Shown in pieces: positions 36,131-64,000 of a stretch of DNA of 64,000 nt. The position numbers were made by a program, and so were the translations under genes. The stretch's first letter is position 1. Each line of letters opens with the position of its first letter. The notes below the pieces were generated by a model, which did no database searches, had not been told where the DNA came from, and saw nothing but the letters and a program-made list of their open reading frames with translations. The DNA comes from Eukaryota sp. GEM-RC1 (taxonomy: Eukaryota): NCBI GenBank assembly GCA_040285855.1, contig JAUFOQ010000001.1, positions 248,001 to 312,000 of the forward strand. The letters run 5' to 3'.

Positions 36131-36199
36131 ATAAATCAAACTACTAACATTTTTAATACAGTTTTACAAGAAACAATTAACTATCTGAACTAAAGATTT

Positions 36200-36775: not shown

Positions 36776-36785
36776 GAACGAATAC

Positions 36786-37272
36786 ACCTACTAGTAGACT
36801 AATCCTGGGAATTAGTCTCACATTCGTAATTAGTCTCACTCAGACTACTTCCCATGTTGCAACACTTTAAACTGAAAAACGATTGGAAACTACTAATTAC
36901 TCAAATTAGTCTCACTTTTTGTGATAAAATCCCTATAAAATAGAACAACATTCAACGAATACAAATTCTGAACCACGTTGATATTTCTTCTATTTTCCTG
37001 TGAATAGCATCTCCGCTGATGTTTGTGTTTACAAGTCAAGAAATTGAGCCAGGACGTGGTTTTTTCAATAATGAGCTTGTTCTAGCACATCCTTCTAGTT
37101 GGTATACCCATTTTAATATGATTGCTGTGGGAGAAAATCGAGCAGACGTACCGAACGAATGTTTTCCTACTCTATTGGTCATATTGAATGACCTCAATTT
37201 TTTTTGGAGGTGAGACTAATTACCAACAATGATAATTAGTCTGAGTGAGACTAATTACCAAGATTAGTGACT
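36786..37272. mobile_element. ~490-bp inverted-repeat element present in duplicate A and absent from B; related end at ~13085-13150
   Basis: Nested aattagtctcac / gtgagactaatt inverted repeats; empty site at ~50933 (gaacgaatac|ttcttttaaata). Confidence 0.75.
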
Positions 37273-37339
37273 TTTTTTAAATAAAATTTGATTTTTTATG
37301 GAACAAAAACACTAAAACATCATGTTTATTCGGCACCCA

Positions 37340-38290: not shown

Positions 38291-38362
38291 AGCAGACGGT
38301 AGAGATGAAATATTTTTTAAAGGAAAAACACTAAAATAACCACAAATACATGTACTCAGGGC

Positions 38363-41039: not shown

Positions 41040-42368
41040 GTTGCAGGGCTCCTCATAAATAAATATAGTTTCTATTCATTAATATCTATATTTATTTTTG
41101 ACACTTTTCCACGATCATACAAGTAAAACAATATATAAATAAAATATATATAATATGCTGCAAAGTAAACTTCATTGATCTTTATACTACATGAGTTGAT
41201 TTAGTACTCAAGGTTGTTGATTGACTTGAGACATGTTGTGTGAACATATTCAAGCTCAGCCAAGAATCAAAGTCTAGTCATTTTCCCTCAAACTTTGCCA
41301 TTTCCATGTCGAACCTAACCGATGCAGTTGAGCCTTTACCTGTGTTCGAAGCCAATCCAACGACTATAACCGGGAGTGAACGGTTCTCATAGTCGTTCAA
41401 GATGCTGATTATTGAACTTATGTGTTATTGAAGATCCACAGATGTCTATGGAATAACGACACAGTCAGAGCAATTATACGAAGCAGAAAGTCAACTCACC
41501 TTTTTCGACAAGAAAGGGATGAACAAATAGATTGTGTATTCATCGATAGTGACTCAGATTAGATGTACTATTACAATAATTTGTTTGTATTTGGGTTTTA
41601 TTTTGTCTTAATTATATTTATTTCACATTTATTTTTGGCACTTTTGGATGTTCAAATTATTTTTAAATTATCTAATGAGAGAACGTGCAAATATTAGTAC
41701 TCAATATCAGTAAAGCAACAATCGTTGCCAATAAAACTCACATCAGCTGTTTCTTCATAAAAAATACTGAGAGGTAATCAATGTGCGCAAATCTTTGGTA
41801 CGTCCCGATCTACAGTCTTTTATCCGTACCGATGTCATTTGATCTCGTTAAAAGCCTATTTATGAATAATCTAAAAGGATGTAAAAATACTATCTTTTCA
41901 GTGGAGGTTCATTCACTAGTCATACACAGTACTAGTGCAAATTGTTACTGCATCTTCTGACCGTTTAGAAATCCAATCTGTGGCTTTTTGGCACTGTATC
42001 TTTGTCATATTACGTCGTAGTCACTCGTTAAATGCTCTGTAATTCGAAGATGCTACTACTATTGTTGATTTCGAGCGATTGCTGAGCTTCGTAAGTAGAA
42101 ATGTCATTTTGGGGAAGTTGTGGTCACCAAATGACGTACCCTAATTATGAATATGTGTGACAATCACGACATTGATATTCTGAGCGATGTTTAACGGTTA
42201 GAATTGATGACGATGGTAGCTGTTAAAGTCTGACATTCGATCATCATGCTAAAAATAGTAATAATTTATTTTAGTCGGTGAAAAGTACAGTGCCGGTACT
42301 TGCAACGCACGTACGGTACGGTACGTCTAAAATCCCCGCGGTACGTAACATTTGCGTTCCATGTTATA

Positions 42369-43312
42369 CAGTCAACCCTGTCTATAGCGTAACCCTCTAT
42401 ATAGCGTAAAACTCTTTATAATGTTAGTTTTTTCACCGACACGACATTTTTTCTGGAACGACAATCTGTTTGTCTCTGTTACGAGTGTAGAATGAAGTGA
42501 TAAAGTATTTAGTAGAAGCTAAACAGTCAATTCTATTCATCATATCCAACATCTTGCTGATGCTTTGGCAGCCTTTGTCTCACATCATTGTTCTGGTGTA
42601 GTTTCTCATCTTCCTTCAAGGTCTACATCGCCTTACGAAGCAACCTAAGTTCACACGTAGAAAACCTTCTTCAACATCTACATTTCTGTTAATATAGACA
42701 TCTCTTGTGAATAGAGTCAAGAGAGTAAAGATACAACGTCGAAGGCGCACCATCCTCAAAACGAAGGTGTTTAGATCTATCACCTTCTCAAACTCGAAAG
42801 ACGTTTTCCCTTGTTTCGTCATCCCCACTCTGCTGAACCAATACTATAACCTTAAGATACGAAGACGAAGTGTTTCTCATGTTGTAAGAACAAATACCAA
42901 CGTAGAAACCACAAAATGTGTACTATGTGACATAGGTATCCCACCTACATACAGAAGAAGACGGTAAGGGTGGATCGAACATAGATCATGATGTGAAGAC
43001 ATCATCATTCAACCTTCCTCCCATATACAAATATGGTTTATGTAAAGTTATCATCAGTTGAACTCTTCGTTCAATTTCATTGGTCAAAATTTGGCATCAC
43101 CACATTTTGGCATTGACCGCTGATCTCATCATTGACATGGTTGTTGCATCTACTTTGGCGATGAACGAATGGCCCACTCGTAGTTCTCTTCATTTGCTTT
43201 GTATATAAAGACTCAACTCAATTTGTAGAACTGCACAAGGTGTTCATTGGATATGGCGTAAAACTGGTTCTACTGTAAGGACATATAGTGACGCTATAGA
43301 CAGGGTTGACTG
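42369..43312. mobile_element. Non-autonomous Tc1/mariner-pogo-like element (944 bp); the copy at 51664-~52435 lacks the right end
   Basis: 22-bp perfect TIR cagtcaaccctgtctatagcgt; TA on both flanks. Confidence 0.9.
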
Positions 43313-44015
43313 TATTGTTATGTGATACCAGTATGTTTCAATAAGATAACAATAAATAAATTTATAGATATTGTATTCATGTTTCGTTGTTTCGTACATC
43401 CCTTCCAAAAATGTTCAGAATACACAATTGCACTATTGATACCTCTGCTATCGTCATTCTTATTACTTCTAGTAAGAAAATACTATTTAAGATGTCCAAC
43501 AATGCGAAGAGAAGGAAAGGGCCGTACACAGGACATTTTAATAAAATGAGTTGTGTTTCATTTATTTAATTGAATTTTAATTATAATTCATTTTTTGGAT
43601 TTTTTGGATTTTTGAAAATGTTTAAAAATAAATTGACAGATACTCTGGTTAACAGTCGTAACAGTCGAAATTGATCTTTCAAGTGTGAGAAGAAGACACT
43701 GAACATGAATAGGAAAGAATGGAGCATACTAGAACCAGTTGTGCCACTTCATCGGATTGTGATTTGTCCAATATCCCTGCAGTTTCTTGTCAGGTTGAAC
43801 GCCTATTCTTTTCCACATCATCAATCTGTTCAGAAAGGTTTTCACTGTCCTCCAAAATGCTGAATGTAGCGCTGATGTTGAAGATAAACAACAATCTGTG
43901 GAACACGAAAACTGCTAGACCCTCCAAATAAATGTGAAACAGGGGTTTTCAGCACGAATAAATTGCCAGTTGATTACTATAACGTTTATATACAATTAAA
44001 ATACTTGTGAGATGT

Positions 44016-44815
44016 TCAAGTTGAAACATCAAATTCCTGAATGACACACAAAAGACAATCTTGATACAGAAGATCATCAAAGTTTGAACCACCAAGATTA
44101 GCATCGCCATCGGTGTCAATTACAACATGGGACTGTTGTTCACCAGCTTTGATTATCGTAATGTCAAAAGTACCTCCACCAAGATCAAAAACAAGAAAGA
44201 GTTTGCCAATAATATCTATGTCTGGATTAGCGTGAAAATAAGCCAAAGCAGCAGCAATCGGTTCTTCCAAAACTCTGATAACATTGAGCCCAGCAAGATC
44301 GCCAGCTGCCTGACGTGTAGCGAGTTTTTGACTGTCATTGAAGTAAGCTGGTACAGTTACAACAGTATCAATTTGACCCGGGTCAAGACCAAACTGGTTT
44401 TGGGCATAAGTTTTGATTCTCTTTAGAATTTCAGCACTCAGACTTTGAGGAGTAAACAACTCATTATTGAGATTAACAACAGCCAATTCACTGTAGGGGT
44501 CCTGTTGAACTGTGAAAGGAAAGCTCCTGAAGTCATTGAGATCGATTTCAGGAAAGGGGCGTCCTATCAACCGTTTAAACTCTCGAGCTACAGTGGGTGC
44601 TCGTCTTGGAAGATCGTCAATAATTGTCAAAGCTGGTGCACCACAAATTAGCCCCCTTTCAGTACAAGCTACGGCGGATGGCATGGTGAGCTGATTTTGC
44701 TAGAATACAAGAACAGGTCTTGAGTTAGATCAAAAATGTGCACATACATTTCATTATGCCCGCATAGGAAACCACAACTATTTGTAGTTCCTAAATCGAT
44801 ACCAAATGTGGGCAT
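44016..44815 (-). pseudogene. Truncated copy of the Hsp70-VWA gene (N-terminal part of the NBD only); intron 44719-44747
   Basis: Close paralogue of 54176-54958; lacks 1425 bp (52751-54175 in copy B); 'caa' microhomology at the junction ~44030. Confidence 0.9.
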
Positions 44816-45544
44816 TATCGCAGAAAAATGAAACTGAAGATTCCACTCCAACCCAAACACTCTCACATTTATTATTGTCTGTACCGTATCACAACCGTCC
44901 TTGTCCAAATCTGAGCTAGGCTTGGTTTAACAACTTAACTTTATGATGTTGCGGTGATTAGATGTGATTTCTAACATCTTAATCACATTGTCACATACCA
45001 CAGATTATATATCTGGGATTCTCAACTACATGACGTAGGGTTAAGCTTTATGTTCTTTCTCAAAGCCATACTGATGTAGGAAGATGACGGCTAGCTTACT
45101 ACTCCTTCTTCATTTCTATGAGACTTTACCATTGTCTTCTTTCAGCAAGGTATTGTTACTGAAATACATCGGTTCCTTCCCCTTTCTCTTTTCTTCCTCA
45201 AAAAAGCAATTCCGATCATGCTGGTTTCGTTTTGAATGTACACAGAGGCATTTGGGTCTCTAGTAAGTTTGTGCTCCATTAGAAAGCACTTGACCTGAAT
45301 AGAACACTTTCTCCCTATAAACACTTTATATGTCTGTTGTCCTGACCGGGAAAGTATGAAATGTCCGTGATATCCACATCACCTGACATATGAAAGGAAG
45401 TAGGACATCAGTGTTGAAGTTACATAATATACCCCTTCCTTTGTTTTCTACAAGTGTTTGTTGCAACAGAATTGCTTGTCAAATGATGTTTGCAAAGTTT
45501 TTGAGTGGAATGGCTTATTTCAACAAACACAAATTTAACGAAGT

Positions 45545-45955
45545 TTATACTCCACAACAACAAAATAGTCTGTGTAGCAACGAATGACGAGGAATCGGAC
45601 TGTTTATGTCCAGATCTATATCTGATATATCTTTAACTGGTGGGTCTACATCTGAGTCACTGCCATCTGCAACAGTTGGATCCACAGCAATGTTCTGTGG
45701 ACTCGCAATGTCTAATTCCAGATCAAATATATAGTCCAGGCCTAACACATACGCCAGGTCAATTCTTTCTGGATCTACAGCAACTGGTGGCTCTACATAC
45801 AACCTACCGACATTGTTCTGAGCCTGGTTCTTAAGATCCTCTCGAACATGGTCATTTTCAATAACTGAAAGGGAATTTCTGATAAATCCGTCACCCTTGA
45901 GTTGCATTTCAGCATAAAGATTGATTAGATGAGTTCCTGATTGTAGACAATAACT
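45545..45955 (-). pseudogene. 3' remnant of the CCCGV-ending gene family
   Basis: Matches 55688-56107 only; upstream it switches to unrelated sequence. Confidence 0.75.
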
Positions 45956-46029: not shown

Positions 46030-48644
46030 CTACAAACCAAATAGAAGACTTGGCAACCTTTTAAATATTGTCCACAGACGTTCTTTACCTGTTGTTTTAG
46101 TTCGTTCTAAGTTGTCCTCAATTTTAGCTGAATCATCTGGGTTGTACACGTACAATTGAGGTAGTGAAACTCCACTTAACAGATTTGAGACTTTTGGTTG
46201 AAGTAGATGAATTAATGTAGAAATATCATCGCGATGATGAACATCATCAGGAATTACATGATATTCGTGTTCAAGAGTAGCTAGAATTCTGTTCATACCA
46301 TTTACTTCTGTTTTCTGATAGTAGTGAGACCATAGTAACAGGAAATTGAGATCGTCTTCTGAAATTAGATTCCAACTTTTTCCAGCATGAATACAGTGGA
46401 GAATTAAATTAGCTGAGGAGGTAGCTGTCTTGTTGTCACCAATAAAACGCTGCAATGCAAAATAAATGTCATTCTTGATTGCAGAAAATGTATGTGACAC
46501 CCAATGTATTCCTAACTCTCCATTAACGTTGCTGTTATGAAGATGAATGACGAAATTCCACTTTGACAGTAATTTTCTTGTTGAAAATGACCAACGAAAA
46601 CACTTTTTGGGGTCAAATTCAGAATCAATTCTTGAGCATTCCTTGATGACATCAAAGAGGGGACATATGTAGAACAAATCCTTTTCAAATCGGCAACAAG
46701 CGAGATATTCTACCATTTTGAGGAATAGTTTAAATAGCGAATTGTCATCAGTGAGATTCCGCTTTGTCAGTTCAATCAGAAACCACTCAAAACGAATTAA
46801 ATCGTTATTGATGAGAAACAGCTTTGAATAATAGAAATAGACAAGCACAGCTTCTGGCGTTTCACAAACATATTCATAATGCCTACAAAGACTATCAAGT
46901 AACAGCGTCATCGAATCTAATTGATCAGAGTGTAGAACATAAGGACTAAAATGATTGAGACCAAACTTCTGCGCCAATACTTGAACGAATTCCTGTCGAA
47001 TATTCCGACAGTCTTGACAAAACTGCTGTACATCTCCAAGAAACTGTGGCGCCAAAACTTGAACAAATTCCATTGGAACATTTTCACCCATTAATAACCT
47101 ACAGACATTTCCTAATAGCTCTGAGACAACGTTTGGATCTTCTGTATTCCTGAGCTCTTCTGCCAGCCGGCGAACAGGATCAGGTGAACGGGGAATGACG
47201 AAATTCTCTGGAATAACAGTTTCTGATGCTTGAAAAATAGCCTCCAGTGTTTCGTCTTCCAAATTAGGATTGACTTTGAATCCATCATGAAACAATTTTG
47301 TAAGTTTAATCAGAGCACCCCCAGAACAAAGCTCAAAATCGGGATTGCGTACAGGAGCGTTTCTATATAGTGCGTTGAATCGTGCTGAACAACGTGAGAG
47401 GGTTTGCCTCGATTGAGAGGTAGCTGACTCGCGGTTAGACAAGTAATTATTCAAAGAGGGATATACAGACATTGGAACTCCATGAATTCGAAGATTTTCA
47501 ATGTAGTCTCCCTGGTGGAAGTTCAATTGACCATCAGGGAGAGTACAATACAGTGCACCACCAATTTTGATACTGTCAACATCATAAACTGTAAATCTAC
47601 ACTGTGGGAATGTTGCTTCGAGTATTGCTGTTATCTCTGGAATTTGACAAAATTCTCCAGTCAGATACACATCGTTGACTTGACCAAAGCGGTTTTGAGC
47701 AACCCTTTCCAATGCATTGCTGATAAGACTAGTGAAGTCTTGAATCGAATTTAAAATAATAGTGTAGAATTGCGTGCGAGTAATTTCAAGAGCGGGAATA
47801 TTGGGCAATATTCCACTAAAGTTTTCAACATGAACATGTTCTTCTTCACCAGCGCGAAAAAAAACACGTCTAGCGGATTTGCAATGTTCAAATAGCTCAA
47901 ATTGGGCTCTACGATCGGTTAAAAAGTGTGCGTATCTTTGGACATCTCTTTCATTGATATGGTCAGTAAAATACTTGTACAGGTCGTAGTCCCATGTTTT
48001 CCCACTGAAACTAGAGATTGCTTGAAAAGAATCAGGAATGAAGGAATCCTTATTAAAAGCAACGACTCCAGTAGAAGAATAAGAAATGTTACACATTAAG
48101 TGAGTGCCAATCGGATTATCTTGATGTGGAAATGTAAAAACGGCAGACACCACTGCGGGGATGATGGCTTTGAGATCAATATCGAAATGTCCTAGAACTC
48201 TTTTGATGATGGACTTTGTAACATTAGTTTCATCGACGAAGGACGGAGTATGGGTAACAACTGCACGAATCGGATTGTCTCTAAAAGGCGGATCATTCTT
48301 CAAACGAGATATAACTCGATACAGAAGAAAGGCCACAGAAAGCGGCATTTCTAGTCCATCAAAATCTACTGAAGTGACAGAGTCTGATTTATGAGTACAC
48401 TGGGGGAAGGCAACGTCATCGCCATGAAGATAGTTAACAAATAGAGTGTCGGATGGATCTATATTCAGTGTTTCAGGCGAACGAAACAATGAAACAGAGG
48501 AAGTCTTGAAAGCATGACTTCAATAAGAAAGGAACACGGAACATACCTCAATATAAAGGAAATGGGCCCTGCACCTCTGCCCCCGACATTCTTTACCACT
48601 CGCAGCGAGTTATGAGAAACATCGATTCCAATGTTAATGACCAT
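46030..48644 (-). CDS. Highly divergent Hsp70/actin-fold NBD fused to a helical C-terminal region, ~860 aa; intron 48518-48546
   Basis: Spliced N-terminus MVINIGIDVSH; VVTHTPSF, IIPAVVSAV, FSGKTWDYDLY and VYLTGEFCQIPEI occur in Hsp70 NBD motif order; long uninterrupted ORF. Confidence 0.75.
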
Positions 48645-48752
48645 GAATATGGAAAGAAAACAATTGGTCAAGAAATTCAAGAAATTCATTTCTGGACACC
48701 AAAATGCAGGTCCACAACTCATGGACACACGGATTACAATATTGCCACATCA

Positions 48753-48902: not shown

Positions 48903-51900
48903 CCACAGCATGTGTTTGCGTTTGACGTTTTTGCTGTATGTGTTTTTATACATGTATTGTAACTCAAAAAGCCAAAAGTTCATCTCTAAAATTGCAAATT
49001 AAATCGAACCAGCAATGAAAAAATTTTCTTAGTTATCTTATTGTTTTTCTGACATTCAACAATAAATACAGTTTTCAATTTAATATCATATCGTATTTAT
49101 TGTCTTGAGTCAATCAACAACAACAAAAATATTTGTAATAACTACAGTTTGTAATCACTAAGAACAAGAATTTGATCAACTGTGGTCTGATTGATTGACG
49201 TGTGAACAATCTTTATTAAAATTTACTGGTAGATGATGGATCCCCAGATCAAAATTGTACAACCAATACAGTTACTTTTCTAACGCTTTGATCTCAGATT
49301 TTGTTTAGTGTTTCTTAAAGTCCTCATCAGCTCTCTTGATAAGCATCCCATCTTCATTTCTAGTTGCAGGTATCCAACATAAATCTATATATTATCAGTC
49401 TTGATTAGTTCGCTGCTGATTAAGTTTCTTCTATCTTTTGTTTAAGCCACCGTGACTACTTGGTTTGCTGTTACCTTGGAGTTCAAATGCTGCAACACAA
49501 TTCAACTTTATTCTAAATTAACGTCACGATTAAATCAGGTTACAGAAAGGAAAAGAATGTTCTTGACTTATCTTATCTTTTTGAAATATATCTTACATTG
49601 TTGAGTTTTCTAGATAAATATACATCAATGTGCGCAAATCTTTGGTACGTACCCTACGTACGGTTGAATTGTATGGTAAATAGAAGTAGTTTTAAAAGGT
49701 TACTGATCATGAGACTTGCTCAAATGTCACTGCTATTGCATCCTGGCCACGTCATCAATCAAATTTGATTGTTTTCTCCACCAGTAATAGATTGTTACAC
49801 CTTTTTGATCTCAACTCTCAACAAATCATTTCAACTTTTGATTCCAATCACACTCGAAATATTTGTAACATTTCAAATAATGATGGCTTTGGCAGCCACT
49901 CATCATCTTCATACACCGTCTTTGCCACTGCTTCGCAGACTCCACGGTCAGACTTTTTGATACCAGAACTTCTACTTGTTCAATGTTTTCATCAGATCAC
50001 TCCTCAAAACTAGGGTCACCTCAAGTTTCAATTGACAACAATTTTAAATATTTGGCCCTTGGTGGAGATTCCTTTTCTACAATGTATGATTTATGATGTT
50101 TAAAACCTATTTCTTTAATTAAACAACCATCATATATTACAAGTGGTTATATGTTTTTACATTCTACAGATTTTTTGTTCTTTCAATTCAAATGGTGTTG
50201 GAGTATTCAGTTATAAATCAAAATACTAACATTTTTAATACAGTTTTACAAGAAACAATTAACTATCTGAACTAATGATTTAATCATCTTTTACTTTCAT
50301 ATACAGCAAGTATTGTTGATCATCAACAAGCAGAATATTTGCTGGTTTCAGATCACCATGAACTACTGACTTTAGGTGGAGGAACTTAACAGCTTGGCAT
50401 AGCTCCTTGGCGTATCTCAAAGTTGATGACGTGAAAGAGTTAGGGGAGGAAAGAAGAAGCTCTTTCCATTACAGGACCAATAGAATCTTGGAAGAAGAAG
50501 ATTCCAAAGACACGAAGTATGGACTGATGATTGAGGTTGATGAGGAGATTCAGGTCTTGTTGAAGTTTGAGCTTTCCTTTCTCAGTTAGAGACACCATTT
50601 TGACGGCCACGGGGAGATCGAATCATTTAGCAGAGTATACAACAACGAAACCTCCTTTCGCAATCCTTTCTCCAAGAACGATCTGGGTGGAATTTGGGGG
50701 CAGAGATCGCCATTACGGGAAGCTTGTACAAGATCCTGCAATGTAAAGTTCACCTTTCTCTCTTCCGAGCAGTGACTAGCACAAAGAGGACATCTATTCA
50801 GTTGCGCTGAACAATGAGAGCAAGCAGTGTGACCTTCGATAGATAAGAAGGGGAAAGTGGTCGGAGAGATTGAAAGATAGATGCAGACTTTAAGAACTTC
50901 TTTTTTAGAAGTGTATTCAATTGGAACGAATACTTCTTTTAAATACAATTTCATTTTTTATGGAACAAAAACACTAAGATAAACATAAATACTAGAATTC
51001 AATATCAGTAAAGCAATCATTGCCATTAAAACTCACATCAGCTGTTTCTTCATAAAAAATACTGAGAGGTAATCAATGTGCGCAAATTTTTAGTACGTCC
51101 CGATCTACAGTCTTTTATCCGTACCGATGTCATTTGATCTCGTTAAAAGCCTATTTATGAATAATCTAAAAGGATGTAAAAATACTATCTTTTCAGTGGA
51201 GGTTCATTCACTAGTCATACACAGTACTAGTGCAAATTGTTACTGCATCTTCTGACCGTTTAGAAATCCAATCTGTGGCTTTTTGGCACTGTATCTTTGT
51301 CATATTACGTCGTAGTCACTCGTTAAATGCTCTGTAATTCGAAGATGCTACTACTATTGTTGATTTCGAGCGATTGCTGAGCTTCGTAAGTAGAAATGTC
51401 ATTTTGGGGAAGTTGTGGTCACCAAATGACGTACCCTAATTATGAATATGTGTGACAATCACGATATTGATATTCTGAGCGATGTTTAACGGTTAGAATT
51501 GATGACGATGGTAGCTGTTAAAGTCTGACATTCGATCATCATGCTAAAAATAGTAATAATTTATGTTAGTCGGTGAAAAGTACAGTGCCGGTACTTGCAA
51601 CGCACGTACGGTACGGTACGTCTAAAATCCCCGCGGTACGGAACATTTGCGTTCCATGTTATACAGTCAACCCTGTCTATAGCGTAACCCTCTATATAGC
51701 GTAAAACTCTTTATAATGTTAGTTTTTTCACCGACACGACATTTTTTCTGGAACGACAATCTGTTTGTCTCTGTTACGAGTGTAGAATGAAGTGATAAAG
51801 TATTTAGTAGAAGCTAAACAGTCAATTCTATTCATCATATCCAACATCTTGCTGATGCTTTGGCAGCCTTTGTCTCACATCATTGTTCTGGTGTAGTTTC

Positions 51901-52766
51901 TCATCTTCCTTCAAGGTCTACATCGCCTTACGAAGCAACCTAAGTTCACACGTAGAAAACCTTCTTCAACATCTACATTTCTGTTAATATAGACATCTCT
52001 TGTGAATAGAGTCAAGAGAGTAAAGATACAACGTCGAAGGCGCACCATCCTCAAAACGAAGGTGTTTAGATCTATCACCTTCTCAAACTCGAAAGACGTT
52101 TTCCCTTGTTTCGTCATCCCCACTCTGCTGAACCAATACTATAACCTTAAGATACGAAGACGAAGTGTTTCTCATGTTGTAAGAACAAATACCAACGTAG
52201 AAACCACAAAATGTGTACTATGTGACATAGGTATCCCACCTACATACAGAAGAAGACGGTAAGGGTGGATCGAACATAGATCATGATGTGAAGACATCAT
52301 CATTCAACCTTCCTCCCATATACAAATATGGTTTATGTGAAGCTACAACACATGGATGTCTTCAGTTGAACTCTTCGTTCAATTTCATTGGTCAAAATTT
52401 GACATCACATTTGGGCGTTGACCGCTGATCCCATCAATGGAGCATACTAGAACCAGTTGTGCCACTTCATCGTATTGTGATTTGTCCAATATCCCTGCAG
52501 TTTCTTGTCAGGTTGAACGCCTATTCTTTTCCTCATCATCAATCTGTTCAGAAAGGTTTTCACTGTCCTCCAAAATGCTGAATGTAGCGCTGATGTTGAA
52601 GATCAACAACAATCTGTGGAACACGAAAACTGCTAGACCCTCCAAATAAATGTGAAACAGGGGTTTTCAGAACGAATAAATTGCCAGTTGATTACTATAA
52701 CGTTTATATACAATTAAAATACTTGTGAGATGTTCAAGTTGAAACATCAAGAGTTGATACAGAACT

Positions 52767-54958
52767 CTATTCTGATCTATTTAATCTTGCGGTCTGTTGT
52801 CGACTTGCCTCAATTTGATCATCAGTCAACACTCCTGGTCTTTGATCAATGGTAACCGACTGAGTTTCTCCATCAGCTTCAGCAGTCACCCGTAAGATGT
52901 TATTGTTGTTAATAGCAAAAGTAATAAAGACCTGATTCTGGCCAGCTGGACGAGGTTCAATTGGAACACTGAATTGACCAAGTAGACTGTTCTCTGCAGC
53001 CAATTCGCTCTCACCTTCCAAAACCTTAACTGAAACCCTTTTCTGGTTGTCTTCGAGATTCACAAATTTTTTAGTATTTGAATAAGGAATTTGAGTCCTT
53101 CGTGAAATCAAGGGATAACATCTTTCAGTTTCCTGTCCAGAAGCCCCAGAGCTTTTGGCTAAAGTGTCAAAGGCTTCTCTAAGAGAAATACTATCAGAGG
53201 GTGAGAGATGTTGACCATGTCCAATCTGTGATAAATTTCGTAGTCGTTCAAAAGATTCTGATTCTTGACCAGAAAAACCAATGGTATGTAATTCCGCGTC
53301 TGTTTGCCCATCAAAGTAGTTTGTCACGAGATTTACAACAGCATCTGGACGGTTTCCATCTTGCCCATCAGACAACATGACAAACAATGGAGTTAGAGTA
53401 TCTGAGGAATGGCTACCAGCGAGTGTAAAGGCTGCATCCAATGCAGCATGATAGTCAGTTCGGCCGATTGGTGTAATGGAATTCAATCGCTCTCTAAGTT
53501 CTTCAACATCATTAACTGAAGCAGTGTCAACAACTACAGAAGCTTCGTCATTGAAAGCAATCACAGAAATCAAATCAGTTGGAGATTCATTTGCTCTTCG
53601 TGCAATGAAATTCATAGCATTTTCAACAACAGCACCTAATCTGTTCTGTTGGCAAACCCATTCAGCACTAGGAATGACATCGATGGAACTCATGCTGTAA
53701 GATCTGTCAATTACCAGATAAGTATGGAACCTATTAGATTTGAGAACACAGTCAGTTCCAAATGAATGAGGAGTGATTGCATGGACTGAAGCAGTTCCAA
53801 TAAGTGAAGCTCCTCGTGCCACAATTTCGTCCACCTCCAAACTTCCATCGACCTTCTCAAAACCGAACATTTGATGCAACATGTGGCGGACTTTCAAGAT
53901 TCTTGTAGAACCTCCAACGAGTAGAACTTGTTCGATATCTTCCACAGTTAGATCATTTCTAGAGAGCAACTGTTCAACTTGCGAAATGCATTGGTCAAAT
54001 TTTTCAGCACACATTTCTTCAAAATCTTCTCGATTAACGGTTTTTTGAAACATTTCATCACCTATGGCCAGTTGGATACTAAAAAAATCTTCAGCGTCCA
54101 GCATTTCTTTACCTAAGACACATTTTTTCTTAAGTGCACTTGTAAAGGAAATGTTATCGCCAATATCTTCACCAAATTCCTGAATGGCACACAAAAGACA
54201 ATCTTGATACAGAAGATCATCAAAGTTTGAACCACCAAGATTAGCATCGCCATCAGTGTCAATTACATCATGGGACTGTTGTTCACCAGCTTTGATTATC
54301 GTAATGTCAAAAGTACCTCCACCAAGATCAAAAACAAGAAAGAGCTTGCCAATAATATCTAAGTCTGGATTAGCGTGAAAATATGCCAAAGCCGCAGCAA
54401 TCGGTTCTTCCAAAACTCTGATAACATTGAGCCCAGCAAGATCGCCAGCTGCCTGACGTGTAGCGAGTTTTTGACTGTCATTGAAGTAAGCTGGTACGGT
54501 AACAACAGTATCAATTTGACCCGGGTCAAGACCAAATTGGTTTTGGGCATAAGTTTTGATTCTCTTTAGAATTTCAGCACTCAGACTTTGAGGAGTAAAC
54601 AACTCATTATTGAGATTAACAACAGCCAATTCACTGGAGGGGTCCTGTTGAACTGTGAAAGGAAAGCTCCTGAAGTCATTGAGATCGATTTCAGAAAAGG
54701 GTCGTCCTATCAACCGTTTAAACTCTCGAGCAACAGCAGGTGCTCGTCTTGGAAAATCGTCAATGAGAGTCAACGCTGGTGCACCACAAATTAGTCCCCT
54801 TTCGGCACAAGCTACAGCGGATGGCATGGTGCGCTGATTTTGCAAGAATACAAGAACAGGTCTTGAGTTAGATGAAAAACGTGCACATACATTTCATTAT
54901 GCCCGCATAGGAAACCACAACTGTTAGTAGTTCCTAAATCGATACCAAGTGTGGGCAT
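52767..54958 (-). CDS. Hsp70 family protein with a VWA domain inserted in the substrate-binding domain, ~720 aa; intron 54862-54890
   Basis: Intact NBD motifs GIDLGTTNS, FKRLIGR, TVPAYF, EPIAAA, DLGGGTFD, LVGGSTRI. After ITPHSFG comes a VWA domain (IDRSYSM, GRTDY, LSDG, LHTIGF; ~53158-53735). SBD-beta then resumes (RRTQIP, DNQ, VLEGE, LLGQF, ILRVTA). No lid and no EEVD. Confidence 0.92.
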
Positions 54959-55687
54959 TGTCGCAAAAAAATGAAACTGAAGATTCCACTCCAACCCAAA
55001 CACTCTCACATTTATTATTGTCTGTACCGTATCACAACCGTCCTTGTCCAAATCTGAGCTAGGCTTGGTTTAACAACTTAACTTTATGATGTTGCGGTGA
55101 TTAGATGTGATTTCTAACATCTTAATCACATTGTCACATACCACAGATTATATATCTGGGATTCTCAACTACATGACGTAGGGTTAAGCTTTATGTTCTT
55201 TCTCAAAGCCATACTGATGTAGGAAGATGACGGCTAGCTTACTACTCCTTCTTCATTTCTATGAGACTTTACCATTGTCTTCTTTCAGCAAGGTATTGTT
55301 ACTGAAATACATCGGTTCCTTCCCCTTTCTCTTTTCTTCCTCAAAAAAGCAATTCCGATCATGCTGGTTTCGTTTTGAATGTACACAGAGGCATTTGGGT
55401 CTCTAGTAAGTTTGTGTTTTATTAGAAAGCACTTGACCTGAATAGAACACTTTCTCCCTATAAACACTTTATATGTCTGTTGTCCTGACCGGGAAAGTAT
55501 GAAATGTCCGTGATATCCACATCACCTGACATATGAAAGGAAGTAGGACAGCAGTGTTGAAGTTACATAATATACCCCTTCCTTTGTTTTCTACAAGTGT
55601 TTGTTGCAACAGAATTGCTTGTCAAATGATGTTTGCAAAGTTTTTGAGTGGAATGGCTTATTTCAACAAACACAAATTTAACGAAGT

Positions 55688-57648
55688 TTATACTCCACAA
55701 CAACAAAATAGTCTGCGAAGCAACGAATGACGAGGAATCGGACTGTTTATGCCCAAGTCTATATCTGATATATCTTTAAGTGGTGGGACTACATCTGAGT
55801 CACTGTCATCAACAACAGTTGGATCCACAGCAATGTTCTGTGGACTCGCAATGTCTAATTCCAGATCAAATATATAGTCCAGGCCTAACACATACGCCAG
55901 GTCAATTCTTTCTGGATCTACAACAACTGGTGGCTCTACATACAACCTACCGACATTGTTCCGAGCCTGGCTCCTAAGATCCTCTCGAACATGGTCATTT
56001 TCAATAACTGAAAGGGAATTTCTGATAAATCCATCACCTGTAAGTTGAATTTTAGCATAAAGGTTGATTACATTGGGATCAGTTGAGTTACTGATTGTAG
56101 ACAATAATCGGCAACGAAAGAGCTCAGAAATAGGTGAATCAATGTTCAAAAATCGTTCACTGATGTCAAGAATCTGACCAACAGCAGCAACTTGTGAATC
56201 GATAAACTCAGCATGGTGATTGATCCAGTAATTCCACTTCTCCATACGTACGCTGTTCTTTTGCTGAAGGAGATGGAGGACTGAAGGAAAACGACCAGGG
56301 TGCAGTTCCTGCTTTTTCAGTAAGATAACGATTCGCTTCAGTTGCAATATCAGGTCGATAAATATTGAACCATAGAAAGACATCAATGGTTTGGAAATAT
56401 TCATTTGAGTCAATTAAGAATTGAACTTGTTGTGCTGTTTCAGAGTTACTTAACTCAACCAAGTTTCTCGCCAAGTCAAATCTTCCAACGCATAAATACA
56501 CTTTCATAGACAAATCAATGCAGCTAGTTTTTGTGTTGGGATTCAAGTAATTTAAATAAGCACATCCTTCTTTAGCAAAGAGAAAAGCTTCCATGAACAT
56601 CTTGCGTTTGAAAAAGATTTCAGCAACATTGAAGAGGTTGTATGTATGTCTTATTTGAGGTGTAACAACAACGCCATCATTTGTTGTAATCAAGGCAAAT
56701 GGACAACCAAGTTCAGCTGCGGCTCTACACATAGAGGGTCTATTAACTCCATCCAAGATACATTTGCCCAAAATATACTTGACAGTTGAGTGGTCCGGTA
56801 AGATATCAGACATAAAATGAACGACATTTTTAAATGAAGTATGAAGAGCCGATTGAAGTAAGATGTCTTGGAGGTTGGTGGAATTTGGAGGGCGACGTGT
56901 AAGAATTCTGTTATTAATGTCAGCACGCATTTTCTTCAATGTGGCAGGAACATCATTAGTTGTTAAATGACACCTTTCACACAGTAAAACCAGCCAAACG
57001 GCACTGTCGGTGATTTCTTGTTGTCCATAATTGGGAATTACTCGATCTCGCAAAACCTGGATACGATGGTTGACAAAGGATGTAAAGTGTTTTTCAGCTT
57101 TGTAGTAAACGACTTCAACAGGCAGACTGTTTTCATAAACAGAATCTAACTCAGGGAATTCTACCGGAACTGGGAGCAGTCGACGAATTCTCCTCAGGAA
57201 TTGTGTTGCAGTATCAGTATCACGTACAAAGTACGGAAAGTGGGCGATGATGGACAAACAGAAATAACACTGAGTCAGAGGGTCATCACAATTGCGAATC
57301 AAGGCTTGGTTGTCACAATGATAGGTAGGGAAGGAGCAAAGTTCTTCACAGCGATCAAGAAGTACAGATTCGCGAAAGAACTGACACACAGTGTTGTCAT
57401 CTCCCCTCAAAAACAGCTCTGGAAAGGTGTTTCATTCCGAGACGGCGATCTGGTTGGTTCTGGGCCAATAACAACGTTGCTGCTGGTAAATGTGCTTCTG
57501 GAAGACTCCGTTGGACTGCAAATAGAAGGGCTTCGTGTCTTTCTGCATCGGGTTGTTGGTGATCCTGATATACAGCAAAGCGTTCTCTGGCTTCCTGGAT
57601 TCTCACATCGTTGTCGATGTCAACAACTGGAACAATGGCGATATCCAT
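55688..57648 (-). CDS. Uncharacterised helical (Sel1/TPR-like) protein ending ...LFCCCGV, ~650 aa, with two frameshifts relative to the inverted copy
   Basis: ORFs 57397, 56208 and 55688 join when corrected against 62626-64000 (indels at ~57404 and ~56310); AAAELGCPFA and HLSRAVFQGD resemble Sel1 repeat ends. Confidence 0.7.
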
Positions 57649-57810
57649 ATCTTTCTAACCGATTCCAAATTACGTGGAAATGATTTATAATCATTCTTCA
57701 ATGTTTTGCTATCTCATTTACCGCAATTTTCAGTGAATAGAGGTTACTACTGTTCTTCTGAATTTGAGAGTTATAACAAGCATCAGTTTAATTTGCCAGT
57801 GATTCTTTCG
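56272..57810. repeat. Inverted duplication, left arm (partner 62464 to the right edge)
   Basis: Reverse-complement identity, e.g. cagtgaatagaggttactac vs gtagtaacctctattcactg; same small ORFs on opposite strands. Confidence 0.95.
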
Positions 57811-58284
57811 ATTCCGCAACCAATTCAGGAACTTACCTGAACCGTTAGACGGTTGTCTATTTATACTCATACTACAGTAGAAGAAGACAATATATGTTGT
57901 GAAGGTCAATAGGTTTTGTGAATCAAGAAGATACACAAACGCAGTACTAAACAATTCTTTGGATCAGCGTTTGTTTAAAGAGTAGGGAAAGCCAAGAACT
58001 ACGTTAAAAGCGAGTCGTGAGCTACCTGAATGTTGTATTGTACTAAGATTGAGAATGTCATCAATTTTGTCAGTCAGGGACAAACAGAACGTACTAGAAA
58101 AATATTTACAGGGGTATCAACGATTAGTCAGTATCTAATAGACACCGCACTACATCATCACAAAAAACCAAACACCAAGAAGAAAAACTTAGTACAATAG
58201 TAAGAATAGAAGGATGTCGTAGGTGAGAAATGCTCGAAAACTATACACAATAGATTTATATTATAAGTAGACACTTGCTTTGAA

Positions 58285-61200
58285 TTAGTTTGAAAACTGG
58301 TGTAAAATCATCTTATCGTCATCAATCAGTACATCGTCCAACTGATTACTACCTTCCTCATAATTAAAGGTGATGGAATATGTTCCTTTAGGTAACACCA
58401 TACTGAAAAATCCTTCAACATTGGTTGTGGTCTGTACATAATCAGTATCAACTTCAACACTGTCCAATACATTGCCTTCATTATCAATCACAAAGCCACT
58501 GAATAGGAAAGAGATCGGAGTGAGTGTGAAATTATGAAGATTAGTGGAAGTAGCACCATCAATAGTCAATAAAACTTGTTTAGATTCATAATCCACATAG
58601 TAAAGGGTCAATTGGTGTTGTCCATAAGGCACGCTGAGTAACTCAAAATCCCCATCATCATTTGTTACATCGTAAACAACATTACCCAGACTGACCTCAA
58701 CACCACTGAAACGATTACCATCAGAGTCCAATACTCGACCATAGAGATCCATTGTTTTCAGGTACATTTCAGCTTTGTAAGTAGAAAACCCTGAAACCAC
58801 AATATCAAAAACAACGATATTATACTCGTCTGCTTGAACTTCTACTTCATAAGATCCTAAAAACACGTCTTCGAATTCAACAACACCTTTCCTATTAGTA
58901 ACCAATTCTTGAACAATATCATTAGATTGTTTCAGTTTCACAGAAGCACCAGATAGCAAGGTCATTGAAGTATTATCATAAACATAAACTTTTACGACAA
59001 ATGGTTTGGAATCGAGATAGATATTTTCAAGAATTACATCTGACCTCAATTCTACTGTTTGTTCAAAAATGTCATAATCAGAATGGGAAAACGTTAAAGT
59101 ATAATTATCCTGACGTAATTGTGGGAAGTTAAACTGCCCTTCATCATTAGTAAAAGTAGAAAATACAGTTTCATCAATAGCTACTGATACATCATTAACT
59201 TTGGATTCTTGGTAATAAATTGTTCCAGAAAGTGAAAAAAAGAATGGATCTAGAGCAATATCCAGGGTCACGTCATCATTAATTAGAATATTGGAATTAA
59301 CAGTAAAATAACCATCTTTTTCTACAATAATTGTATAATCTCCAATAGATAGATCATTGAACAATGAAATTCCACGATCATCAGTGATGATGACGTTTAC
59401 AAGAGAACCCTCAGATGACTCAAGAAGTACAGAAGTGTCCCTCAAGTATTGGTCAGATTCACTATCAAAAACAACAATTTTTAAATTGAATATTTTTGAT
59501 TCCAGTTCAAATATTCCAAGATTGTCATCATTAGAAACAGATATAGAAACTTCTTTTGTCTGATATAAATCATGAGTAAAAACCAGGGTGTAAGTTCCAT
59601 TACGAATATCAGAAAATTGGAAAACTCCATGATGATCGGAAGTGGTAGTGACAGTGGAAAATTTGATAGTGACTGTAACATCATCAATTTCTTCTGATTG
59701 ATGGACAACAGATCCAGAGATTTGATAGAGCTCCGGTTCTAACGTGACATATACTTTGATAGAACCATTAACTAAAACGGCATTAGAATAAGTGTGAAAG
59801 CCCAACACTTCAACTGCTACTTCATAAGATCCTAAAAACACGTCTTCGAATTCAACAACACCTTTCCTATTAGTAACCAATTCCTGAACAATATCATTAG
59901 ATTGTTTCAGTTTCACAGAAGCACCAGATAGCAAGGTCATTGAAGTATTATCATAAACATAAACTTTTACGACAAATGGTTTGGAATCGAGATAGATATT
60001 TTCAAGAATTACATCTGACCTCAATTCTACAGCTTGTTCAAAAGTTTCATAATCAGAATGGGAAAAAGTTAAAGTATAATTATCCTGACGTAATTGTGGG
60101 AAGTTAAACTGCCCTTCATCATTAGTAAAAGTAGAAAATACAGTTTCATCAATAGCTACTGATACATCATTGACTTTGGATTCTTGGTAATAAATTGTTC
60201 CAGAAAGTGAAAAAAAGAATGGATCTAGAGCAATATCCAGGGTCACGTCATCATTAATTAGAATATTGGAATTAACAGGAAAATAACCATCTTTTTCTAC
60301 AATAAATGTATAATCTCCAATAGATAGATCATTGAACAATGAAATTCCACGATCATCAGTGGTGATGACGTTTACAAGAGAACCCTCAGCTGACTCAAGA
60401 AGTACAGAAGTTTTTTCAAGAACTTGTCAGATTCACTGTCAAAAACAACAATTTTTAAATTGAATAGTTTTGATTCCAGTTCAAATATTCCAAGATTGTC
60501 ATCATTAGAAACAGATATAGAAACCTCTTTTGTCTGATACAAATCATGAGTAAATACCAAGGTGTAAGTTCCATAACGAATATCAGAAAATTGGAAAACT
60601 CCGTGATGATCGGAAGTGGTGGCGACAGTGGAAAATTTGATAGTGACTGTAACGTCATCAATTGCTTCTGATTGATGGACAAAAGATCCAGAGATTTGAT
60701 AGAGTTCCGGTTCTAAAACAATCTGAATCATAGTACCAGACGAAGGATCTAAAGAAATCAATTCATCAATGAAACCAACTTTCGATAGACGTAATTCGTA
60801 CAATACCAGCATTAAATCAAACTCAACTCTTCCCACATCATTTTGAAAACGAAGAGTCAACCTCGACACCATCAAGAAAGATTGTAGCATTAACATTAGA
60901 GAGAAGAACTGCAGAGAGTGAATCAGAAATGATACAGATAACAGTTTCAAATATAGGTTCAAGTAATACTTCAAAAGCTTCTGTTTCTCCTTCAATTACT
61001 TCAAGTGTGTAGAAAGTAGTGTTAAATCGTCTATGAGAGATCTCAAGAATAATAAAAGACTTCAACCTGAGATTACTTAAGGTAAAAACACCGTCACTAT
61101 CAGTAATGACTGATTGATCAACCACCTTGACTCTTGCTCCTTCAATAGGTGAATTGTCATTGGATAAGACCTGACCAGTCCTTGAGACCAAGACAGGATC

Positions 61201-62396
61201 CAACGAAGTAACAATAGTTAAAGGAGGGAGACCAAGATCAACAAGGATGGTTTTGTTAAAATACAAATGATGAGACAACTCAAATTCATACAAATCAAGC
61301 CGTAAGTTATCAAACACCAGTAACCCATTTTCATTAGGAGTACTACTAGACAAGGAGGTGTTGACGTCAGCAGAACCATACATCAAAGGAACATTAGATA
61401 GACTATCATGAATAGAGATAACTACTTGGCTGGTCAAATGAGTCAGCTTAAGTGATTGTGGAGTTGTGGAGCCATGGTTAACGACTGTGGTGATGTTGTG
61501 ATACAGAGGATGGTAAAGAGAAAGAAAATAGAGTCCAGGTCTTAAGTTGGAAAACAAAACTTCTCCATTTAGTGATGACGTGGAAAAGACATCAAATGAC
61601 TCTAAAACTACAACAACATCACCGAGTGGTAAACCAAATTCCTTGTCAAGCACAATGATATTGAGATTGTGTGTGTATCTAGAGAGAGCAAATGGTAAGA
61701 TACCATCAAAAGAAGATAGACCAAACGATTCTGTCATTGAATGATATCCTAGAAGATCAAGAGTAATAGAGTAAGAACCAGACCAAAGACCAATGGTAAA
61801 TACTCCTTGACTGTTGGTGACTACTGTTTCTTTGGACTGTGGAGTTGTTAGAGTGACCTTCACTTCCTTCAAGAGTTGTCCTGTCACGTCATCAGAAACA
61901 ATGCCTGAGTATTGGTAAAACATTGGATCGAGATTGACTAAGAGATGGTTATCGTCCTTGTTGAGATGTCCGATTTGTTGAGTGTGGTTGTAGTAGGTTG
62001 AATGCGTAAGCGATAGACGAAGGAGACCGACTTTGACCTTTGGAAAGGAGAAAGATCCTTCAGAATCAGTGAGTGTTTGAAGTGAGAGTTCTCCATCGAG
62101 GAGAAGAAGGACAGAGACGGAGGGTACAGGAAGATCGCTTCGACTATCAACTACCTTGCCAACTAGATCAGCGGAAGGAGTATGAGCAGCAACAAAGATA
62201 ACAACTAGAAGAGTAAACGATAATATCCACAGACAAATCTCTAAAGGTGAACTAACAGAACTAGAAACAAACTCAAATAGGATGGCCGAAACTTTGGATG
62301 AAAGTCAACTTTTACATCAATGGGGTCGACACCCAGCTGATATTTACGCTTTATATGCTCCAAAAAAAGAATTGGTTGCGGAGTTTCAGGATGCAT
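58285..62396 (-). CDS. Type II membrane protein with tandem carboxypeptidase-regulatory/PEGA-like beta-sandwich repeats (adhesin-like), ~1360 aa; intron 62241-62272; frameshifts at ~60843 and ~60413
   Basis: Spliced N-terminus MHPETP...KICLWILSFTLLVVIFVAA (single TM); repeated G.V.D...L..V.V....T...G.F.F..L..G.Y.L.....Y motif; many N-X-S/T sequons. Confidence 0.78.
58842..60717. repeat. Intragenic tandem duplication, period 975 bp (325 codons)
   Basis: 58842-59742 is nearly identical to 59817-60717. Confidence 0.93.
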
Positions 62397-62625
62397 TGCA
62401 ATCGATTCGAAATTTGGATTTTGAATTCAAACAAAATAGCTTTACTGAATCAAAACAGTCAAACGAAAGAATCACTGGCAAATTAAACTGATGCTTGTTA
62501 TAACTCTCAAATTCAGAAGAACAGTAGTAACCTCTATTCACTGAAAATTGCGGTAAATGAGATAGCAAAACATTGAAGAATGATTATAAATCATTTCCAC
62601 ATAATTTGGAATCGGTTAGTAAGAT

Positions 62626-64000
62626 ATGGATATCGCCAATGCTCCAGTTGTTGACATCGACAACGATGTGAGAATCCAGGAAGCCAGAGAACGCTTTGCT
62701 GTATATCAGGATCACCAACAACCCGATGCAGAAAGACACGAAGCCCTTCTATTTGCAGTCCAACGGAGTCTTCCAGAAGCACATTTACCAGCAGCAACGT
62801 TGTTATTGGCCCAGAACCAACCAGATCGCCGTCTCGGAATGAAACACCTTTCCAGAGCTGTTTTCCAGGGAGATGACAACACGGTGTGTCAGTTCTTTCG
62901 CGAATCTGTAATTCTTGATCGTTGTGAAGAACTTTGCTCCTTCCCTACATATCATTGTGACAAGCAAGCCTTGATTCGCAATTGTGATGACCCACTGACT
63001 CAGTGTTATTTCTGTTTGTCCATCATCGCCCACTTTCCGTACTTTGTACGTGATACTGATACTGCAACACGATTCCTGAGGAGAATTCGTCAACTGCTCC
63101 CAGTTCCGGTAGAATTCCCTGAGTTAGATTCTGTCTATGATAAACGTGTGCCGGATGAAGTCGTTTACAAAGCTGAAAAACACTTTACATCCTTTGTCAA
63201 CCATCGTATCCAGGTTTTGCGAGATCGAGTAATTCCCAATTATGGACAACAAGAAATCACCGACAGTGACGTTTGGCTGGTTTTACTGTGTGAAAGGTGT
63301 CATTTAACAACTAATGATGTTCCTGCCACATTGAAGAAAATGCGTGCTGACATTAATAACAGAATTCTTACACGTCGCCCTCCAAATTCCACCAACCTCC
63401 AAGACATCTTACTTCAATCGGCTCTTCATACTTCATTTAAAAATGTCGTTCATTTTATGTCTGATATCGTACCGGACCACTCAACTGTCAAGTATATTTT
63501 GGGCAAATGTATCTTGGATGGAGTTAATAGACCCTCTATGTGTAGAGCCGCAGCTGAACTTGGTTGTCCATTTGCCTTGATTACAACAAATGATGGCGTT
63601 GTTGTTGCACCTCAAATAAGACATACATACAACCTCTTCAATGTTGCTGAAATCTTTTTCAAACGCAAGATGTTCATGGAAGCTTTTCTCTTTGCTAAAG
63701 AAGGATGTGCTTATTTAAATTACTTGAATCCCAACACAAAAACTAGCTGCATTGATTTGTCTATGAAAGTGTATTTATGCGTTGGAAGATTTGACTTGGC
63801 GAGAAACTTGGTTGAGTTAAGTAACTCTGAAACAGCACAACAAGTTCAATTCTTAATTGACTCAAATGAATATTTCCAAACCATTGATGTCTTTCTATGG
63901 TTCAATATTTATCGACCTGATATTGCAACTGAAGCGAATCGTTATCTTACTGAAAAAGCAAGGGAACTGCACCCTGGTCGTTTTCCTTCAGTCCTCCATC
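62626..64000 (+). CDS. Apparently intact inverted paralogue of the CCCGV-ending protein; runs off the right edge
   Basis: ATG at 62626 (MDIANAPVVD...) reads in frame through both positions that are frameshifted in 55688-57648. It is absent from the ORF track because it has no stop inside the window. Confidence 0.8.
   Translation, partial: MDIANAPVVDIDNDVRIQEARERFAVYQDHQQPDAERHEALLFAVQRSLPEAHLPAATLLLAQNQPDRRLGMKHLSRAVFQGDDNTVCQFFRESVILDRCEELCSFPTYHCDKQALIRNCDDPLTQCYFCLSIIAHFPYFVRDTDTATRFLRRIRQLLPVPVEFPELDSVYDKRVPDEVVYKAEKHFTSFVNHRIQVLRDRVIPNYGQQEITDSDVWLVLLCERCHLTTNDVPATLKKMRADINNRILTRRPPNSTNLQDILLQSALHTSFKNVVHFMSDIVPDHSTVKYILGKCILDGVNRPSMCRAAAELGCPFALITTNDGVVVAPQIRHTYNLFNVAEIFFKRKMFMEAFLFAKEGCAYLNYLNPNTKTSCIDLSMKVYLCVGRFDLARNLVELSNSETAQQVQFLIDSNEYFQTIDVFLWFNIYRPDIATEANRYLTEKARELHPGRFPSVLH

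Follow-up and report, generated by a model that had tools for sequence, protein, structure and literature searches.

How can a chaperone take up a complete second domain in the loop that arches over its peptide-binding cleft, and what becomes of the chaperone that does so? The question is raised by a gene on the minus strand of a 64,000-nucleotide stretch of Eukaryota sp. GEM-RC1 (assembly GCA_040285855.1, contig JAUFOQ010000001.1, positions 248,001 to 312,000 of the forward strand), hereafter the window. An original prediction, made from the sequence alone, described the gene as an Hsp70 whose substrate-binding domain (SBD) is interrupted by a von Willebrand factor A (VWA) domain bearing a metal-ion-dependent adhesion site (MIDAS). 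We find that this Hsp70-VWA architecture is real, conserved and apparently undescribed, and we propose that the VWA may serve as a targeting tether built into a remodelled Hsp70.

Gene structure and domain order

The base composition of the window (33–41% GC) is eukaryotic-looking. From its ATG the frame of the gene runs into stops unless it is spliced, the remainder being an open frame of 699 codons. Among five in-frame GT..AG splice candidates the shortest, a 29-nt intron at 54890-54862, yields a 720-aa product and places the N-terminal strand motif in register, from residue 1, with that of P0004, an unspliced-looking full-length relative. The features of the gene, all on the minus strand, are as follows, NBD being the nucleotide-binding domain.

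52767..54958, minus: Hsp70-VWA gene, read 54958->52767, predicted product 720 aa
54891..54958, minus: exon 1, with the ATG and the GIDLGTTNS phosphate-1 motif
54862..54890, minus: predicted 29-nt GT..AG intron, at the same position in the tandem duplicate copy
53790..54861, minus: rest of the Hsp70 NBD (Pfam and DnaK alignment)
53778..53789, minus: interdomain linker, degenerate and shortened (SVHA for LLLD)
53745..53777, minus: SBD-beta strand 1 region, ITPHSFGTDCV, equivalent to DnaK 394-404
53777-53757, minus: ITPHSFG motif
53145..53735, minus: VWA domain in loop L1,2
53694-53708, minus: MIDAS DxSxS (DRSYS)
53643-53660, minus: Skoliomonas-type WxxQxN loop of the VWA
within 53451-53465, minus: MIDAS T
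within 53364-53375, minus: MIDAS D
52827..53120, minus: SBD-beta strands 2-8, 43% identity to DnaK over 94 columns
52767..52826, minus: helix A, the first part of helix B and the stop codon; no EEVD

Pfam recovers HSP70 in two stretches of the 720-aa protein (E 3.9e-89), with VWA_2 (2.6e-11) and VWA (7.9e-8) between them. The expectation that SBD-beta resumes after the VWA was borne out, the post-VWA part aligning to residues 415-529 of human HSPA2 (independent E-value 3e-15), and all eight SBD-beta strands are present by sequence.

Insertion site and integrity of the VWA domain

Residues are numbered after E. coli DnaK, the alignment reference, and conservation was judged against a control set of 66 Hsp70s (8 bacterial, 6 eukaryotic and 52 from 80 giant-virus loci, the other 28 loci being excluded as split, partial or duplicate). 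Between DnaK T403 and I412 the window protein has 213 residues, compared with 8 in 64 of the 66 controls; the exceptions have 12 (HscC) and 16 (a Nostoc Hsp70). Alignment to DnaK, which the original prediction had called for, puts the insertion in the SBD-beta loop L1,2, at DnaK 404-406, with the chain rejoining at strand 2. DnaK M404 lies at the tip of this loop and forms the arch over the peptide (PMC8215388).

The MIDAS is complete, as first described, with DxSxS, T and D present in all seven members of the family introduced below. The linker leading into the VWA is short and constant across the family (7–10 residues), and that from the last VWA helix to strand 2 measures 21–25 residues in the six members counted; in the window copy it is rich in Gly and Ser, and its composition and length would suit the role of a tether. 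Removal of the VWA by splicing was rejected; the domain lies inside one stop-free open frame. A chimeric assembly was rejected too: an identical layout occurs in three Skoliomonas isolates, the MIDAS being intact in 7/7 members. That the gene is real is confirmed by the recurrence of its layout in six further database proteins.

Members of the family and their distribution

The same layout is found in P0002 and P0003 (both Eukaryota sp. GEM-RC1) and in P0004 (TZLM1-RC), to which a profile search of 1.84 billion representative sequences added P0019 (GEM-RC1), P0020 (TZLM3-RCL) and, again from GEM-RC1, the fragment P0032 and the sequence P0168 that clusters with it. Williams et al. (2024) assign GEM-RC and TZLM3-RCL to Skoliomonas, a genus of free-living anaerobic metamonads (PMC11316075). 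Identity between the window protein and P0002 is 79–88% in VWA and SBD, which makes a Skoliomonas the most probable source of the window; with P0004 it is 51% (NBD), 49% (VWA) and 53% (SBD), and with P0020 it is 39%, 40% and, for SBD strands 2-8, 42%. Strands 2-8 are the most conserved part in each family pair tested, and the VWA is about as conserved as the domains that flank it. TZLM1-RC we take to be S. litria.

A search for other split HSP70-VWA-HSP70 architectures returned positives confined to Skoliomonas, and the family as found belongs to that one genus. Relatives sought by VWA alignment gave 81 pattern matches in viral contigs and 32 in prokaryotic genomes, none of them confirmed, and a single weak match among 281 in metagenomes. 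Small samples of gene neighbourhoods were likewise negative: no VWA lay among 1293 open reading frames (ORFs) around 80 giant-virus Hsp70 loci or among 1507 around 80 prokaryotic ones, no Hsp70-VWA fusion occurred in 9, 11 and 32 more hand-picked loci, and no place covering 80% of P0004 or P0020 was found in 428 and 425 plasmid records. A word search with the NBD (E 1e-60) was uninformative, most of its matches being tandem records from plants. No description of this protein was found in the literature searched, subscription papers and figures being beyond reach, and six supplements of the Skoliomonas genome paper contained neither the locus tags nor the term 'VWA', one picture-only PDF being unsearchable.

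Origin of the Hsp70 part

The NBD phylogeny suggested earlier, of 25 rows with the insert removed (a thin sampling with no metamonad or mitochondrial rows), unites four family members in a single clade (100/100), which falls within the cytosolic-type group (95/99). This clade has a long branch and is separate from the endoplasmic reticulum (99/98) and DnaK (100/100) groups; in an earlier quick tree of 42 rows, without P0020, a pair of members had branched basally on the eukaryote-type side, again with a long branch. The indel signatures and lengths of the Hsp70 part are also of eukaryote type. A bacterial or mitochondrial DnaK origin was rejected, and the Hsp70-VWA is a paralogue descended from cytosolic Hsp70.

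Origin of the VWA domain

After the Hsp70 fusions themselves, the VWA is best matched by P0021 (2110 aa), P0022 (1516 aa) and P0023 (300 aa), all three from Skoliomonas, which score 137–151 bits against 102 for the next match. P0021 and P0022 run from a GTPase domain through a Cys/His-rich region to a terminal VWA; several of their relatives pass the Pfam cut-off for GBP, and a GTPase or Cys/His region is present in 45 of the 148 other VWA matches. A tree of 39 VWA rows unites the seven inserts in one clade (99/97), within which the window protein, P0002 and P0003 form a subclade (91/88), and nests it among the three Skoliomonas GTPase-type VWAs (93/92). The motif Q.N..G[AS][VA].E, in the MIDAS-side loop that follows DxSxS, is present in 7/7 inserts, in 3/3 of these VWAs and in one of 100 other matches that cover the stretch. 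From the single insert clade within the Skoliomonas GTPase VWAs, together with the shared motif, it follows that the insert arose once and was shuffled within the lineage. On this comparison its donors are giant GBP/RHD3/URGCP-like GTPases of Skoliomonas itself, whose VWA is C-terminal. The analogy with MoxR and midasin, drawn when the gene was first described, is accordingly one of function only.

A common origin with the VWAs of three HSPA12-type NBD-VWA fusions was also considered, and their joint clade was rejected (p-AU 0.0196).

Giant GBP/RHD3/URGCP-like GTPases with a Cys/His region and a terminal MIDAS VWA are themselves widespread in eukaryotes (P0021, P0022, P0025, P0030, P0035, P0037, P0053, P0057), and no paper on this family was found in the literature searched. 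Named GTPase-VWA relatives include proteins from what we take to be a fern and a red alga, and also from a malawimonad and an amoebozoan.

ATP site, interdomain coupling, pocket and lid

The canonical NBD motifs reported earlier reflect an intact ATP site. The window protein is identical to DnaK at 15 of 17 positions, keeping D8, T11, T12, K70, E171, D194, T199, D201, G341, G342 and R345 and differing by E267V and S274D, and P0004 is identical at 17/17. Loss of the K55-E267 bridge accompanies fast ADP release in HscA (PMC8215388).

Coupling of target capture to the Hsp70 ATPase cycle, a central part of the original prediction, is doubtful in the window copy, where D393A, T173I, N170E, R151K, D326R and F216H are found together with an interdomain linker of 13 residues, eight shorter than the 21 of DnaK, that reads SVHA where a canonical Hsp70 has a hydrophobic linker ending in D393. 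In the controls D393 and T173 are conserved in 66/66, N170 and R151 in 65/66 and D326 in 61/66. In DnaK D393, T173, N170, R151 and D326 make up the ATP-state interface, where D393 contacts N170 and T173 and K414 pairs with D326; D393A or R151A blocks signalling (PMC12406271). Other positions are kept in the window protein (P143, Y145, F146, D148, R167, V218, P419, V440, L454, N481 and L484), six of them (P143, F146, D148, R167, V440 and L484) in every member that covers them.

The pocket seems to have been remodelled and not removed, which qualifies the earlier idea that generic peptide binding has been replaced: its floor persists, and the changes to its wall and rim are fixed ones. Five of six members retain F426 and Q433, and V436 and I438 are V or I in all six; the window protein keeps F426, V436 and Q433, has I438V, and is changed at I401T, L397H, S427V and T428N, its arch loop bearing the insert. 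Fixed in 6/6 members are L397H, I401T, E402D and T428N, and Thr401 occurs in none of the 66 controls. The latch residue R467 is replaced in 7/7.

The first description had the protein ending with no helical lid and no EEVD. The absence of EEVD holds for all seven members; the lid is shortened, retaining helix A and the beginning of helix B. After the PGVL motif there are 19 residues in the window protein, 23 in P0002 and 28 in P0003, compared with 131 in DnaK. The other four of the seven members have a lid-like tail of 69–83 residues that still matches the Hsp70 profile, and lid loss is confined to the three-member subclade and forms no part of the family design. No hidden lid was found in another frame downstream of the stop. 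In HscC an L1,2 insertion of 4–8 residues is paired with a helix-B deletion (PMC8215388). Overall, these alignments indicate that the Hsp70-VWA fails the canonical allosteric features of Hsp70 in linker, ATP-state interface and lid.

Structure predictions

Two AlphaFold2 models, made from inputs of 4–5 sequences, have mean pLDDT of 59 and 65 and pTM of 0.37 and 0.45. The NBD, the VWA and six SBD strands fold, whereas strands 1 and 2 and the linker come out as coil at low confidence; the tail of P0004 is modelled, at low confidence, as three helices. The VWA of the P0004 model matches solved VWA domains, among them 4fx5_A, with Z 23.0 and a root-mean-square deviation of 2.4 over 179 aligned residues, in a structure search (VIA) that barely covered the SBD part. 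Foldseek with the window model gave only Hsp70s among the matches listed. An ESM Atlas model of P0020 (pTM 0.65) aligns over 555 residues with a 657-aa plant-type Hsp70 (TM 0.81), an overlay of two predictions that would fit a sandwich that has closed up again and from which the VWA loops out.

Genomic neighbourhood

Around the Hsp70-VWA gene the window contains the following features.

43718..45927, minus: tandem duplicate of the Hsp70-VWA locus, 96.8–98.7% identical
34722-45927 and 48903-56070: segmental duplication, 96–99% identity
39092-40795: hAT transposase gene (DUF659, Dimer_Tnp_hAT) in the first duplicated copy
27251-31970, minus: 1110-aa frame with a degenerate Hsp70 NBD (Pfam E 1.8e-39), hydrophobic segments and two H-type lectin stretches
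46030-48749, minus: frame of 829 aa whose Hsp70-like NBD is very degenerate (local profile E 7e-6; no Pfam match) and whose long C-terminal part belongs to no known family
12415-12771, plus: isolated Hsp70 NBD fragment (Pfam E 1.5e-8)
1-11083: tandem array of 99.7% identical units repeating every 1742 bases or so, most of which bear an ORF of 244 aa on the minus strand (one scanned, no Pfam match)
56272-57813 and 62461-64000: inverted duplicate (98%)
58285-61923: genes with many carboxypeptidase-regulatory-like beta-sandwich repeats, flanked by the inverted duplicate

The tandem duplicate has lost the counterpart of 52750-54170 (end of the NBD, VWA and SBD) in a 1.42-kb deletion at a 3-base microhomology, and its Hsp70 copy is likely a pseudogene. 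Over 230 codons the two copies differ by 14 synonymous and 12 non-synonymous codon changes, assignable to neither. With its deleted duplicate, hAT transposase and divergent Hsp70 pieces, the locus resembles a birth-and-death cluster. Two frames next to the Hsp70-lectin frame have DDD and QRVKSW motifs, which we take to recall a processive glycosyltransferase (Pfam gives no such match), and the 27251-31970 region is possibly one Hsp70-lectin-synthase gene.

In the giant-virus loci from which most controls were drawn, Hsp70 is split at DnaK 197/198, inside DLGGGT, in 16 of 80 cases (L068-L075, L077-L081, L083, L084 and L086), the inserts ranging from a few hundred bases up to about 1500. These are likely introns at one conserved site.

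Mechanism and alternative explanations

VWA domains bind their targets through a Mg-bearing MIDAS, and in integrin I domains the termini lie opposite the MIDAS face. We propose that the VWA of the Hsp70-VWA works as a targeting tether within the protein itself and delivers a cleft that is remodelled, weak and without a lid to few partners, with an active ATPase that is probably only loosely coupled, a reading to which we give an even chance. The VWA would loop out of a re-formed beta-sandwich with its termini opposite the MIDAS face, and the MIDAS would bind Mg together with an acidic residue of the target. The insert may obstruct closure of the lid, which would first have shrunk and then been lost in one subclade. 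Inserts and donors have a conserved MIDAS-side loop in common, and for this reason the Hsp70-VWA could share its class of targets with the donor GTPase-VWA proteins. The window copy might cycle nucleotide fast (E267V) and signal poorly to its cleft, the VWA holding the target beside a fast-exchanging, re-specialised cleft.

Several observations weigh against this account or the origin on which it draws. Re-pairing of strand 1 is absent from both AlphaFold2 models. P0020, the only member with D at 393, also keeps R151, so that uncoupling is not family-wide; R151K is a conservative change. Of the 66 controls, 52 are giant-virus Hsp70s. The RHD3 and URGCP scores of the donor GTPases P0021 and P0022 lie below the Pfam cut-offs, and the node that nests the inserts among the GTPase-type VWAs (93/92) is just below the tool's threshold for a firm branch.

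One alternative is an ATP-driven switch, the original prediction in its strong form, in which a scissor motion of SBD-beta pulls on the ends of the VWA and shifts the affinity of its MIDAS up or down, much as happens in integrin I domains, making the VWA a regulated binding site. The R151 and D393 of P0020, and the predicted overlay of its Atlas model on a whole Hsp70, are joined by the short, constant N-side linker and by the retained positions of the window protein from P143 to L484 listed above. Loop L1,2 is moreover known to move on ATP binding (PMC8215388). The window copy, however, has lost D393, N170, T173, D326 and F216 and has an interdomain linker eight residues short, and the linker on the C side is a long one whose sequence varies; we consider such a switch improbable, though worth keeping in view.

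A defence adaptor or decoy, to which we attach the same low probability, is compatible with the tether model. The protein would belong to a fast-evolving cell-autonomous defence set. It would either share with the giant GTPase-VWA proteins a ligand that signals non-self or damage, or regulate how those proteins assemble, and its Hsp70 part would use ATP to set a threshold or to drive disassembly. The donor family is related to GBP/URGCP-type GTPases, and the coats that human GVIN1 and GBP1 form on cytosolic bacteria offer a precedent (PMC11974893), as bacterial GTPase-HSP70-vWA conflict systems offer a parallel (PMC7159879). At least five records in one isolate, long branches, the deleted tandem duplicate, the nearby hAT transposase and four more odd Hsp70 pieces in the window point the same way, but gene expansion has many causes, no GTPase gene was found in the window, and kinship with GVIN1 rests on Pfam scores below cut-off. 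A bolder form of the idea, which we think unlikely and offer as speculation, makes the protein an Hsp70 'receptor-chaperone': the VWA of a giant GBP/GVIN-like GTPase, moved into the arch loop, would bind the same, possibly non-self, ligand and control or disassemble the GTPase coat, and the local Hsp70 array with its swapped modules (VWA, H-lectin) would be a diversifying protist defence family paralleling the bacterial GTPase-HSP70-vWA systems.

Hsp110 and Ssz1 provide models for an uncoupled scaffold, which would dock on another machine or on a canonical Hsp70 through its nucleotide-bound NBD, with SBD-beta as a stalk, a dead cleft and the VWA as sole binding site. The replaced allosteric residues would agree with this, as would Thr at 401 in 6/6 members and 0/66 controls, T428N in 6/6 and the loss of R467 in 7/7. 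Yet every catalytic residue is kept, F426, V436, I438 (or V) and Q433 persist in five to six of six members, and SBD strands 2-8 are the best conserved in every family pair tested; we regard such a scaffold as very unlikely. An assembly chimera or dead gene, suggested by the broken adjacent duplicate and by truncated gene models among the database relatives, is scarcely credible beside identical junctions in three isolates at 40–80% identity, an intact MIDAS and an uninterrupted 699-codon frame.

Significance

SBD-beta is the most indel-averse part of Hsp70, and Gala et al. report a beta-SBD indel in one of 90 bacterial Hsp70s (PMC8910936); an arch-loop tip with a 200-residue guest shows where the scaffold tolerates insertion. 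The seven homologues form a graded series, with lid and allosteric residues kept or lost, in which the change from generalist to specialist chaperone can be tested, as can the question of whether targeting may be built in instead of supplied by J-proteins. The Hsp70-VWA also gives a handle on the widespread giant GTPase-VWA family of microbial eukaryotes.

Comparison with known systems

The Hsp70-VWA resembles cytosolic Hsp70 and DnaK (PF00012) in its catalytic NBD residues, in SBD-beta strands 1-8 by sequence and in its cytosolic-type clade; it differs in some 205 extra residues in L1,2, a degenerate linker, a polar pocket wall, a short lid and the lack of EEVD. Bacterial HscC has an insertion in the same loop and a partial loss of helix B (PMC8215388), but its insert, of 4–8 residues, is not a domain, it retains D393, N170 and T173, and it belongs to a separate clade.

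The presence of Hsp70 and VWA on one chain is not unique to the window protein. Prokaryotic proteins in ESM Atlas clusters (676–721 aa) carry both domains at similar length and score 0.92–0.96 to P0020 by features; these were compared by domain content only, so that an L1,2 placement is possible there as well, whereas the Hsp70 part of the window protein is of eukaryotic cytosolic type. Among the best 150 VWA matches there is no DnaK-type fusion except those of Skoliomonas. On a Halorubrum plasmid (L188:1081-4168) a VWA gene lies directly 5' of an Hsp70-family gene, the two being separate genes.

Three protist-type proteins that we presume, from their motifs, to be of HSPA12 type (P0084 from Anaeramoeba flamelloides, P0055 and P0105) combine an Hsp70-fold ATPase with a VWA of the same broad subfamily, but their VWA is C-terminal where ours is internal, and their NBD is divergent. 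The giant GBP/RHD3/URGCP-like GTPase-VWA proteins are the source of the VWA and share its MIDAS-side loop, and differ in that their VWA is terminal and their NTPase a GTPase. MoxR-vWA and GAP1-N2 GTPase/HSP70/vWA systems likewise pair an NTPase chaperone with a peptide-binding vWA and bring GTPase, HSP70 and vWA into one system class (Kaur et al. 2020, PMC7159879); these are bacterial, are encoded by separate genes around an AAA+ or DO-GTPase core, and include no Hsp70-vWA fusion in the part of that account available (PMC7159879). CoCoNuT systems have Hsp70-like domains near separate VWA genes in an unrelated layout (PMC11090510). Hsp70 and VWA on one chain were thus known already; what appears new here is the VWA donor family and the nesting of its domain in loop L1,2 of a cytosolic-type Hsp70.

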